NCBI GenBank assembly: GCA_035911315.1
Contig: JAMHVS010000061.1
Location: forward strand, 103,769 to 167,768
Length of the DNA: 64,000 bases
From: Xanthobacter sp.
GTDB taxonomy: Bacteria > Pseudomonadota > Alphaproteobacteria > Rhizobiales > Xanthobacteraceae
Direction: 5' to 3'
Shown: one piece after another, positions 60,093-63,068 of the stretch
Position numbering within the stretch: position 1 is the stretch's first letter
How the letters are laid out: each line of letters starts with the position of its first letter
Position numbers and translations under genes: made by a program
The notes under the pieces: generated by a model
The model's database searches: none
What the model saw: only the letters and a program-made list of their open reading frames with translations
What the model was told of the DNA's origin: nothing

Positions 60093-63068
60093 TCAGTTGT
60101 GCAGGCCCGCGCTGTTGAAGCGGTAGTTCAGAGTCATGGTCACCACATCCATCCGCAGGTTGCCGGGTGCAAGATTGACCCCGGCAAGGGAGGCTGGCGC
60201 AGTTGTGATGAAGCTGTCCGATGCTCCGAAATCATAGTGCTTGTAGTCCAGCCCCAGTGACAGCTGCGGCAACAGCGCATATTCAACACCGCCACCCAGC
60301 GTCCAACCCTTGTTGGTGCTGGTATTGTGGTAAATCTGCCCGGTGAAATTGTAGTTGTTGAACATGTCCTGCTGCTGGTTCCACGCAAAACCGCCACGGG
60401 CATAGATCAGTGCTTTATCAAATGCATAGCCCACACGGCCTGTCACGGAGCCAAGCGAGCGCACCGTGCTGCCACAGTCAAAACCTGAAACTGCTCCCGC
60501 TGGTGCCGTTGAAAAACAGGTATCCGTACCGGCAACATTGGCCCAGGCGAATGCCGCTTCCGCGCCAATGACATAAGCACCCATCTGGTAATCCGCACCG
60601 ATCTGGCCACCTGCGATCGCCCCGCCCAGCCGGGCGGCATCTCCGGAAACCGGCGGTATGAAGGGCGAGGCATAGCTGGAGTGCCCCCTGGCGCTGCCCA
60701 GCGCGCCGCCCACATACACCCCGCTCCAGTTCGCCGGGGTCACAGGCGGCAGCGTCTCCTCGTCTTGCACGCTCTTCGGCAGGTCACCAAAGCGGTAGGA
60801 GGCCTGCAGGAAGGCACCATAACGTTCACTATAGAAAGTGAGGGGCGAACGGGCCGGGAAGCCGGGAAACTGTGTGTAGGCCGTATCGGTCTTGTAATAC
60901 CAGTAGCGCGCGCCCAGACCGAGTTCGAGCCGATCTGTCATGGCATAATTGAGCACGGCCTCAATCTGGCTTCCCCAGCCGCGACCGGATTCAGCCTGCG
61001 GGTTGATATCAGACCGGAACCAGTGATTATCCCGGCTCATGCGCGTCACATAAGGCAGATAGGCGGCATCCACGTCCAGCCGCAGCTTCCGCGAGAGTTG
61101 CATGCGGCTGTTGAAACCAATTGCGATGCCCTGCCATGACTCCGTCTCGCTCAGCACGACATTGTTCGGTGTGACCGCGCTGCATGTCCGGTCTTGGGCG
61201 AGCTGGTTGCAGCCAAAGCCATTCACGCCCTGAAACATGCCGCGATAACCGATAAAGGCGCCAAGACTGCCGCCATCCGTGCGCAGGACATCATAGCCCA
61301 CATCCAGAGCGCCATAGGCCAGCTGGCCATCACTCATGTCGGACAATGTGTTGGAGTAGACGATCTCGCTGGGGAAATCCTCGTCATTCAGGCTGCCGCC
61401 AAACTGGGAACCAAGGCCGGCATATCCTTTCAGGAACAGGCCGGACTCATGCTGGAGTCGGAAGAAGGTTTCCACCGCATGCGCCGTGCTGTTCGCGTAA
61501 ATCAGGCGGGAATTGATGCGCGATGGGGCATCCGGCGCCATCAGATCCTTCTGGATGCGCCCCCGCGAGGCGAAATAGCGCCCGCCGATTTCAGCTGTCC
61601 ACCCGGCCGGCACAAGGCTCTCACGGCTTGCCGTATCTGTTGCCAGCAGCTGGTCCGGCTGTCCCCATGCAAAGCGGTAGTTCAGACCCATACGCACGGC
61701 TTCCAGCCGCTGGCGGAAGCTGGCCGTGCCCACCTCGACCCCATGGGTGAAGGTGAGGCCCTGATTTCCGAAGTCGTAGAAATTATACTCAAGGAACGCG
61801 GACAGCTTCTGTGTGAGGGCATATTCCACACCGCTGCCCAGCATCCAGCCCCAGCGGGTTCCGCCTGTCACTTCATGGGCGCCGAAAGCCGCCGGACTAT
61901 AGACGGCGCTGGAGCTGTCGATCCACGCCGCGCCGACTTTGCCATAAAGCAGTACGTTGCCCATGCTGCGCCCCAGCCGGGCCGAGACGGAGCCAATCGA
62001 ATTGACACCATTCTCGCAGACAAAATTGCCCCGCGTGGCATTATTGATCCCGCATTGGGCATAACTTGTCAGATGCACCGCGCTGATGGAGCCTTCAAGG
62101 CCAGCCACCCATGGGCCATACTGAACATTATAGCCAAGCTGCGCACCGCCCAGCAGGCCCATGGGCGCGCTCGCGCCGGGGAAATGGCCCATCAGGACGG
62201 ACTGGGTGAAGGCTCCGCCGCCATTGTCCCATTCGTTACGTCCCCACATGCCGCCAGCATGCAGGCCTCCATAAAGGCCGCTCCAGTCCTTGCCGGGGCT
62301 GGGCAGTGCCGGTGCATTGCCCGGCAAAGGCGCACCCCATGGCCGCCAGTTCAGCCCCAGTTTCACCATCTGGATGGAACTGGAGAGCGGCACCGCACTG
62401 GTGGAGAAGCCATTGGCCAGCGAGACATCCGACGAGCCGAAGCCCAAATAGGCGTATTCCGCCTTGGCCGAGAGCGTGCTCGTCAGCGGCATTTCCACAC
62501 CGGCTCCGACTGTCCAGCCGGTGCGAAACTGGGAGCCGGTATATTCACCCGCATAGTTTGAGCCGGTCACGGTGAAGCTGTCCCGCGTGAATGCGGCACC
62601 AGCCTTGGCATAAAGCAGAAGGGCATCAAACGTATAGCCGAGACGACCCGTGAGGGTCGCTATCATGTCTGTCTTGGCTTCACACACAGATAGCCAGTCT
62701 GTCAGACACCGCGCCTGGCTGGTGAGGAAGCCCGCGCCGATATCCCCTTCTACCCCCAGCACATAGGGGCCTGACTGGAAATTGTATCCGATCTGCGATC
62801 CCACAACTGCGCCGGAAGCAAAGCTTGAAGCGTCCGATATGGGAAAATGCCATGCAGAGAGCGGCCCGCTGCCTGGTGACCATGTGGAGTCGACAATGGC
62901 GGATCCGACATAGCTGCCAATATAGAAGCCGGTCCACGTGCCCGGCGTGGACAATGGGTGAGTGGCAGGCGCGCCGGAGTTCAGCTCCGCACCAAGAGAA
63001 GGAACGGCCAGTAGTGTCGCCAGAACAGAAACCGATGCCAGAAGATGTCTGTGCGCCACCGGACTCAC
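60093..63068 (-). CDS. Outer-membrane protein composed of four tandem beta-barrel modules (three Omp25/Omp31-like OMP_b-brl units plus one larger distinct unit)
   Basis: GTG start with signal peptide MSPVAHRHLLASVSVLATLLAVPSLGA. Repeated WxGxYxG, GYNxQ and GxxVEY...EYxYxxFG patterns. There are four internal or terminal motifs of the xLNYRF / SYRF type. See the findings entry. Confidence 0.85.
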   Translation of the reverse strand: MSPVAHRHLLASVSVLATLLAVPSLGAELNSGAPATHPLSTPGTWTGFYIGSYVGSAIVDSTWSPGSGPLSAWHFPISDASSFASGAVVGSQIGYNFQSGPYVLGVEGDIGAGFLTSQARCLTDWLSVCEAKTDMIATLTGRLGYTFDALLLYAKAGAAFTRDSFTVTGSNYAGEYTGSQFRTGWTVGAGVEMPLTSTLSAKAEYAYLGFGSSDVSLANGFSTSAVPLSSSIQMVKLGLNWRPWGAPLPGNAPALPSPGKDWSGLYGGLHAGGMWGRNEWDNGGGAFTQSVLMGHFPGASAPMGLLGGAQLGYNVQYGPWVAGLEGSISAVHLTSYAQCGINNATRGNFVCENGVNSIGSVSARLGRSMGNVLLYGKVGAAWIDSSSAVYSPAAFGAHEVTGGTRWGWMLGSGVEYALTQKLSAFLEYNFYDFGNQGLTFTHGVEVGTASFRQRLEAVRMGLNYRFAWGQPDQLLATDTASRESLVPAGWTAEIGGRYFASRGRIQKDLMAPDAPSRINSRLIYANSTAHAVETFFRLQHESGLFLKGYAGLGSQFGGSLNDEDFPSEIVYSNTLSDMSDGQLAYGALDVGYDVLRTDGGSLGAFIGYRGMFQGVNGFGCNQLAQDRTCSAVTPNNVVLSETESWQGIAIGFNSRMQLSRKLRLDVDAAYLPYVTRMSRDNHWFRSDINPQAESGRGWGSQIEAVLNYAMTDRLELGLGARYWYYKTDTAYTQFPGFPARSPLTFYSERYGAFLQASYRFGDLPKSVQDEETLPPVTPANWSGVYVGGALGSARGHSSYASPFIPPVSGDAARLGGAIAGGQIGADYQMGAYVIGAEAAFAWANVAGTDTCFSTAPAGAVSGFDCGSTVRSLGSVTGRVGYAFDKALIYARGGFAWNQQQDMFNNYNFTGQIYHNTSTNKGWTLGGGVEYALLPQLSLGLDYKHYDFGASDSFITTAPASLAGVNLAPGNLRMDVVTMTLNYRFNSAGLHN

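Follow-up and report, generated by a model that had tools for sequence, protein, structure and literature searches.

A putative four-barrel outer-membrane protein of Xanthobacter with an omptin-like ten-stranded unit

Introduction

Chains that join several outer-membrane beta-barrels were catalogued computationally by Solan, Pereira, Lupas, Kolodny and Ben-Tal (PNAS 2021; PMC8346858), who predicted 12,643 multibarrel proteins in 34 architectures. According to the main text of that study, architectures of at least three barrels have exactly one barrel of 10, 12, 16 or 22 strands in addition to several 8-stranded ones, and the predicted linkers have a median length of 22 +/- 13 residues. The families are described there as lineage-specific, arising from amplification and deletion of units, with 8-stranded barrels predominating. 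A sorting signal was recognisable in each barrel, and whether every barrel needs its own signal for BAM, the machinery that assembles beta-barrels, was called unknown. Here, we analysed a 64,000-nt stretch of Xanthobacter sp. DNA (GenBank assembly GCA_035911315.1, contig JAMHVS010000061.1, positions 103,769 to 167,768 of the forward strand), referred to below as the window, and we describe a gene in it whose product is predicted to form four such barrels, one of them related to the omptin proteases.

The window protein shares with the multibarrels of Solan et al. several full-length barrel-family matches per chain and linkers of about 20 residues. It adds a 10-stranded barrel that can be identified, the conservation of its catalytic residues, and a laid-out grammar of the family. 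The main text of the catalogue does not mention omptin, OmpT or proteases. The nearest described fusions are PLA1-PLA1 and PagP-LptD (PMC8346858), in which an enzymatic barrel is also joined to another barrel; the benefit proposed in that text is that the partners are kept adjacent. Those enzymes modify lipids, whereas the window protein carries a putative protease, and the partner barrels and lineages differ.

Omptins (OmpT, OmpP, Pla, IcsP, Kop; Pfam PF01278) share with the 10-stranded unit of the window protein the 10-stranded barrel, with a template modelling score (TM-score) of up to 0.83 (Pla, 4dcb), the Asp-x-Asp and Asp-x-His motifs in register, and a last strand ending in Y-R-F. The unit is, however, only 10-16% identical to them, it adds a conserved disulfide in the beta5-beta6 loop, it mostly occurs joined to between one and three 8-stranded barrels, and its clade occurs in free-living Hyphomicrobiales rather than Enterobacterales. 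The remaining three units share with Omp25/Omp31-type barrels and the OmpA membrane domain a near end-to-end match to PF13505, a match to PF01389 and eight predicted strands. They differ in being chained covalently to each other and to the omptin-like barrel, in having an invariant Cys pair, and in being without the periplasmic OmpA_C domain.

We propose, with a probability of roughly 0.7, that the gene encodes a Sec-exported single chain of four separate outer-membrane barrels with 8, 8, 10 and 8 strands, the 10-stranded one being of the omptin type and a probable surface peptidase. The new element is that this barrel is a distant relative of OmpT and Pla that keeps the catalytic residues, since multibarrel chains themselves have been predicted since 2021. 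Literature searches by accession, by omptin together with multibarrel, and by omptin together with the host genera returned no description of this family, and multibarrel clients are absent from a 2026 review of BAM.

Architecture of the window protein

The gene occupies a single open frame of 991 codons with a GTG start in the open reading frame (ORF) list. Its main features are as follows.

60093..63068, minus strand: whole ORF, a signal peptide followed by 8-, 8-, 10-stranded omptin-like and 8-stranded barrels; 991 aa, probably 988
62337..62936, minus strand: unit 1, aa 45-244, 8-stranded OMP_b-brl barrel, last strand KLGLNWRPW (PF13505, E 7.9e-15)
61665..62288, minus strand: unit 2, aa 261-468, 8-stranded OMP_b-brl barrel, last strand RMGLNYRF (PF13505, E 1.3e-10)
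60786..61607, minus strand: unit 3, aa 488-761, 10-stranded omptin-like barrel, last strand LQASYRF (predicted model, Foldseek, hhalign)
60096..60731, minus strand: unit 4, aa 780-991, 8-stranded OMP_b-brl barrel, MTLNYRF followed by a short tail (PF13505, E 7.3e-14)

A first-pass annotation, made by a model from the letters of the window, had read this ORF as four complete barrels in tandem. Its ORF, unit boundaries and nucleotide coordinates were all reproduced by script, as were the four terminal motifs and three linkers at the residues that it gave. The script also found exactly eight Cys at the listed pairs, C121/C129, C339/C351, C620/C629 and C851/C865.

The annotation had proposed hidden Markov model searches of each unit separately, and these gave strong barrel-family matches for units 1, 2 and 4. 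Each unit alone scored well above the PF13505 gathering threshold of 28.7 bits (55.9, 42.2 and 52.8 bits for units 1, 2 and 4), with the profile covered from positions 17-21 through 162-175 of 175; in unit 4 the match spans positions 18-175. On the whole protein, OMP_b-brl reached an E-value of 8e-40, so the agreement goes well past anything expected by chance. Units 1, 2 and 4 also exceeded, each alone, the cut-off of OmpA_membrane (PF01389), and unit 4 gave weak direct matches to the OmpA transmembrane domain in the PDB.

The resemblance between these three units that had been noticed by eye proved to be end-to-end homology in pairwise alignments, with 31-36% identity and E-values from 1e-27 to 3e-37. 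The shared motifs and the Cys pair pointed out at that time fall within 40 invariant alignment columns. The Cys pairs, C121/C129 in unit 1, C339/C351 in unit 2 and C851/C865 in unit 4, flank the beta3-beta4 loop of the 8-stranded barrels.

The ten-stranded unit

Unit 3 had been set apart in the first-pass annotation as a longer and different module. The separation was sound, as we detected no significant similarity to units 1, 2 and 4, but the identity of the module had been missed: it is a divergent omptin-like barrel. Modelled alone with AlphaFold2, it gave ten strands with a predicted local distance difference test score (pLDDT) of 93.7 and a predicted TM-score (pTM) of 0.88. In a Foldseek search with this model, the 11 top PDB matches were all Pla, OmpT or pOmpT, with TM-scores of 0.67-0.83 (0.72-0.83 for the superposition on Pla and OmpT) and root-mean-square deviations (rmsd) of 3.2-7.0 A. 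The next-best folds, OpcA and a Legionella porin, did not exceed a TM-score of 0.60.

The omptin family was first indicated by precomputed PF01278 matches on shorter relatives. Among unit-3 segments from diverse relatives, 14 of 30 matched Pfam Omptin, with a best E-value of 2.6e-12, and all eight multi-unit relatives that were scanned exceeded the gathering threshold of 22.6 bits (24.4-44.9 bits). Profile-profile alignment with hhalign connected the unit-3 family to E. coli OmpT alone with an E-value of 6e-4, and to a profile built from six canonical omptins (E. coli K-12 and plasmid sequences) with a probability of 84% and an E-value of 7e-6. Both alignments placed D562-E-D564 on D83-Q-D85 and D680-N-H682 on D210-E-H212 of OmpT. 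In OmpT, D83, D85, D210 and H212 form the catalytic site (PMC11410778). The two candidate sites, with their conservation in complete omptin-like domains of the family, are the following.

61377..61385, minus strand: D562-E563-D564, aligned to the OmpT catalytic pair D83/D85 by hhalign; kept in 99% of 251 domains
61023..61031, minus strand: D680-N681-H682, aligned to the OmpT catalytic dyad D210/H212; D in 251/251 and H in 250/251 domains

The D/D/D/H tetrad is intact in 247 of the 251 domains and adjacent positions vary. In the models the tetrad sits at the ends of strands beta3 and beta7, which probably face the extracellular side, given a periplasmic N-terminus. R497, E533, D589, R721 and Q755 are invariant within the family itself, and the disulfide C620/C629 in the beta5-beta6 loop is conserved. 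Unit 3 thus belongs to a divergent omptin-like clade that has the predicted omptin fold and the counterparts of Asp83/Asp85 and Asp210/His212, and that departs from omptins in specificity and lipopolysaccharide (LPS) features; the window copy falls outside them by the Pfam threshold, the S1/S1' residues and the LPS-binding residues.

Full-length model, linkers and terminal strands

Structure prediction of the full protein had been suggested as a check, and it returned four strand blocks of 8+8+10+8 with no single large barrel. The AlphaFold2 model, built with the orthologue alignment and with strands assigned by DSSP, had a mean pLDDT of 84.6 and a pTM of 0.82. Apart from two linkers, values below 50 were seen only at the chain ends, in the signal peptide and at the extreme C-terminus. 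When the full model was searched against the PDB with Foldseek, the well-superposed matches were solely omptins; Pla (2x55 and 4dcb) covered unit 3 with TM-scores of 0.79-0.80, normalised to the target, and an rmsd of about 4 A. The chain therefore resembles the catalogued multibarrels in three respects: three PF13505 matches and an omptin-fold unit that do not overlap, linkers of 16, 19 and 18 aa, and a predicted structure of separate 8+8+10+8 barrels with disordered linkers and a Pla-like unit 3. The linkers are listed below.

62289..62336, minus strand: linker 1, aa 245-260, 16 aa, Pro/Ala/Gly-rich; pLDDT dips to 67 over aa 251-260
61608..61664, minus strand: linker 2, aa 469-487, 19 aa; pLDDT below 50 over aa 476-483, length and sequence variable
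60732..60785, minus strand: linker 3, aa 762-779, 18 aa; pLDDT below 50 over aa 766-772

Across 66 orthologues, the linkers measure 15-31 aa between anchor residues (16-31 aa for linker 1) and are P/A/G-rich and variable. With strand numbers that are even throughout, the linkers should all lie in the periplasm and every barrel should point the same way.

The annotation had claimed that every unit ends in a motif of the kind that serves as a beta-signal at the C-terminus of outer-membrane proteins. The orthologues agree with this, as a terminal strand of the type G-x-N-[YW]-[RK]-hydrophobic is kept in all four units. The final hydrophobic position in the 66 orthologues is distributed as follows.

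Unit 1: P or L in 94%
Unit 2: F or L in 95%
Unit 3: F or I in 98%
Unit 4: F in 91%

Orthologues and the modular family

A search of 5.8 billion proteins with the full sequence returned 364 relatives. Among the matches listed, about 65 are full-length (923-1097 aa) and 38-99% identical, and they come from isolates and metagenomes of Xanthobacter, Azorhizobium, Ancylobacter, Rhodopseudomonas, Afipia and other Xanthobacteraceae and Nitrobacteraceae. In the 66 aligned orthologues the frame is uninterrupted and all eight Cys are invariant. A locus search with the single protein found two full-length relatives, which mark the nearest genomes: a Xanthobacter metagenome-assembled genome (84% identity) and Xanthobacter sp. 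NM-25 (63%). In public records the copies go by no more specific names than 'outer membrane protein', 'outer membrane beta-barrel protein' or 'opacity protein-like surface antigen'. The P0037 cluster contains a 984-aa copy that bears the label Rubrivivax sp. JA1024 (Betaproteobacteria) and shares at least 90% identity with Rhodopseudomonas proteins; either the genome is mislabelled or mixed, or the gene was transferred recently.

A survey of orthologues had been proposed to see whether relatives encode the units separately or fused, and both situations were found, with units occurring singly and in many fusion orders. In the architecture strings used here, X is the omptin-like barrel and 8 an 8-stranded barrel. 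The 120 best full-protein matches comprised 66 proteins of the form 8-8-X-8, 33 of 8-X-8, 20 of 8-X and one of 8-8-X. An exhaustive profile search of 1.84 billion cluster representatives, from clusters at 50% identity, recovered 1,739 proteins at E-values of at most 1e-3, including 501 at 1e-30 or below. The top 146 new proteins included 57 8-X, 46 X alone (some of them fragments), 11 X-8, ten 8-X-8, four 8-8-X, three 8-X-8-8 and one X-X. The omptin-like X is the constant core of this modular family, and the occurrence of units alone and in shuffled orders is strong evidence that each unit folds on its own.

The 8-8-X-8 form is most likely derived from an 8-X-8 ancestor whose N-terminal barrel was duplicated in tandem, because units 1 and 2 both have the single N-terminal barrel of 8-X-8 proteins as their best match (20/20 and 17/20) and are the most similar pair within proteins (111 bits, vs 94 and 79). 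Unit 4 best matches the C-terminal barrel of the 8-X-8 proteins (20/20). An independent duplication is indicated for the 8-X-8-8 proteins, in which the two barrels at the C-terminus resemble each other most. Three unusual relatives were also recorded, P0121 (631 aa), P0137 (976 aa) and P0176 (1224 aa), namely one X-X tandem and two long proteins. The two long relatives carry more than 420 N-terminal residues without assignment ahead of 8-8-X, and these parts may be further divergent barrels.

Through this family the omptin fold, familiar chiefly from enterobacterial pathogens, reaches into a large clade of environmental Hyphomicrobiales (1,739 clusters at 50% identity) whose specificity residues differ. 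Multibarrel outer-membrane proteins are still a computational prediction only, and the family offers experimental handles on them: a natural series of one to four barrels around the same core, a recognisable terminal signal on each barrel, and one barrel with a probable enzymatic read-out and four candidate catalytic residues. It could be used to test how barrels are assembled and how a protease barrel works with neighbours tethered to it.

Proposed mechanism and alternative explanations

In the mechanism that we favour, a Sec signal peptide would export the chain, and the outer membrane would receive four separate beta-barrels on short flexible periplasmic linkers. Cleavage of peptides or proteins at the cell surface is the most likely activity of the 10-stranded barrel. 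Since it has not retained the S1 and S1' residues, its specificity would probably depart from the dibasic preference seen in OmpT. The small barrels, three of the Omp25/OmpA-membrane type, would most likely act as permanently tethered lateral neighbours, whether as a scaffold, a platform of loops or an envelope anchor. BAM would probably insert the barrels one at a time, because each has its own beta-signal-like last strand. What the analysis shows directly is the ORF, its homologies, the folds as predicted, the retained catalytic residues and the modular make-up of the family; topology in the membrane, proteolysis, stepwise insertion and the part played by the small barrels are inferred. The handling of internal signals by BAM had been raised as an open question in the first-pass annotation; the main text of Solan et al. 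(PMC8346858) already asks it. That annotation had also said that multibarrel proteins had been proposed computationally, which the same catalogue bears out.

A more elaborate version, in which the four barrels lie next to each other in a fixed array, the small ones are partners that the protease requires, and assembly runs through four successive BAM cycles guided by four graded beta-signals, is speculative and as a whole rather doubtful. In such an array the small barrels might give the substrate groove its shape, or stand in for the LPS contacts by which classical omptins are activated. The pTM of the full-length model is compatible with a defined barrel arrangement. If the array exists, the series X, 8-X, 8-X-8 and 8-8-X-8 would be the first natural model substrate for the handling of multibarrels by BAM.

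Several observations weigh against a four-barrel surface protease. The window copy of unit 3 fell below every Pfam and NCBIfam threshold in direct HMM scans, and a PDB sequence-profile search with the unit-3 family found no omptin, only chance matches with E-values of about 0.5; because these direct searches were negative, the homology rests on transitive matches, profile-profile alignment and the predicted fold. The alignment puts S678 (in 70% of domains a Gly) at the place of the OmpT S1 residue D208 and N573 at that of the S1' residue D97, while Glu27, of the same S1/S1' set, falls outside the aligned region. For LPS binding we take Tyr134, Glu136, Arg138 and others to be the relevant OmpT residues; of the positions compared, only the Tyr is kept (Y608), with E136 replaced by G610 and R138 by F612. 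Given these replacements, the activity of unit 3 could be different or absent. The internal beta-signal-like strands are retained, that of unit 1 in a degenerate form, and so not all are canonical. Closure of the small barrels was judged from strand count, full-length Pfam matches and modularity. Finally, accession-based literature searches found no experimental work on the window protein or its relatives.

The same replacements feed the most serious competitor, which is that unit 3 descends from omptins but does not cleave, the protein being a structural or adhesive surface array (of the OpcA or Opa type) or an envelope tether in which the conserved acidic and His residues serve folding, ion binding or ligand binding. 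We regard this as unlikely, yet as the alternative that survives best. It would account for the loss of the S1/S1' residues and most LPS-binding residues, and for the absence of recognisable PROSITE-type omptin signatures from the unit-3 alignment. It also draws on OpcA as the next-best fold match (TM-score 0.55-0.60), on the annotation of the families of the three flanking barrels as opacity or surface antigens, and on an N-terminal A/AD (the slash marking signal-peptide cleavage) in many orthologues that resembles peptidoglycan-linked outer-membrane proteins of Rhizobiales. What speaks for catalysis is that precisely the four catalytic residues of OmpT are kept, in 98% of the 251 domains and across 50%-identity clusters, while neighbouring positions vary, the pattern expected from selection on an active site. 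The predicted location of the tetrad at the extracellular rim, at the ends of beta3 and beta7, is likewise that of omptins.

If the linkers are considered instead of the active site, the chain might be a polyprotein precursor that is cut in the linkers into mature single barrels. Complete units with their own beta-signal-like ends, disordered and variable linkers, and single-barrel X forms in other genomes all fit this idea. The linkers, however, contain no conserved cleavage motif, and their expected periplasmic location would make self-cleavage after insertion topologically unlikely for an omptin active site that faces outward. The fusion orders are also conserved over long evolutionary distances, suggesting selection on linkage, and we consider such processing improbable.

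Still less probable is that the units merge into one or two much larger barrels, of 16 or 34 strands for example. There is a precedent in an engineered OmpX tandem with a 2-residue linker, which became one 16-stranded barrel according to the main text of Solan et al. (PMC8346858). The linkers here are 16-19 aa long and Pro-rich, the modules are found alone and in shuffled orders, and unit 3 within the full model fits Pla with a TM-score of 0.80, whereas large barrels (TonB-dependent receptors, MtrB, LptD) reached at most 0.22 with an rmsd of about 28 A. An assembly or sequencing error joining four adjacent single-barrel genes, for which the linkers had been named as the place to look, can practically be dismissed, since the linkers show no stop or frame change and the continuous frame is kept in 66 orthologues of 923-1097 aa from independent isolates and metagenomes, some on contigs of 4.6-6.0 Mb.

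Gene start, leader and genomic context

The 5' end of the gene and its surroundings contain the following features.

63065..63070, minus strand: AGGTGA, Shine-Dalgarno-like motif, overlapping the listed GTG
62991..63068, minus strand: Sec-type signal peptide, aa 1-26, with a basic HRH n-region, a hydrophobic core and PSLG/AE; cleavage placed by eye
63069..63580, minus strand: upstream region of about 500 bp with lower G+C (0.50-0.54), presumed promoter region

The position of the AGGTGA motif, across the listed GTG, makes codon 4 (the GTG at 63059-63057) the more probable true start, giving 988 aa, the length at which a 99%-identical database protein (P0001) is called. In the full-length model, pLDDT was below 50 across aa 1-39. 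A 455-aa antisense ORF at 61194..62561 on the plus strand was rejected as a high-GC shadow ORF, as the homology lies entirely on the minus strand.

An Ala-Asp motif is involved in the cross-linking of outer-membrane proteins of Hyphomicrobiales to peptidoglycan. After the signal peptide, 119 of 215 family proteins have A/AD, 17 have A/AE and eight have SD; the window copy reads SLG/AELNSG (aa 26-28, 62985-62993), and a Nitrobacteraceae-type subgroup is without the A/AD motif. Cross-linking of the N-terminus is mentioned in PMC12436622, which cites Godessart 2021 for it. By analogy, the first barrel might be a covalent envelope anchor.

A promoter scan gave one weak sigma-70-like match at 63291..63264, and a site scan found no terminator-like site flanking the gene, which looks monocistronic. 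About 900 bp upstream are common to the window and the 84%-identical Xanthobacter locus (L002), and the downstream genes differ. Among the Xanthobacter, X. sediminis and R. parapalustris loci compared there were no conserved neighbours, and nothing relates the genes around the X. sediminis orthologue to those around the R. parapalustris one; no clue to function came from the neighbourhood. Downstream in the window, ORFs at 56845-58227 and 58073-59788, both on the minus strand, appear by eye to be glucose/sorbosone-dehydrogenase-like (soluble, with a signal peptide) and Na/Pi-cotransporter-like (membrane-type), respectively. The two share 155 nt, presumably owing to an over-long 5' end of the first, and neither adjoins the orthologue in the Xanthobacter loci. 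The R. parapalustris orthologue (L015) has an alpha-2-macroglobulin-type protease-inhibitor gene (13723-14991) about 4.7 kb downstream; this is probably coincidental, as no such gene lies near the X. sediminis orthologue.

A tblastn search of a plasmid collection with OmpT directly detected omptin homologues on plasmids of Rhizobium (22) and Sinorhizobium (8), and the omptin bll1872 of Bradyrhizobium diazoefficiens is listed among the genes and proteins whose expression rises under microoxia (PMC6515984). The only Rfam or tRNA feature in the window is a tRNA-Gly (CCC) at 8761-8834 on the minus strand.

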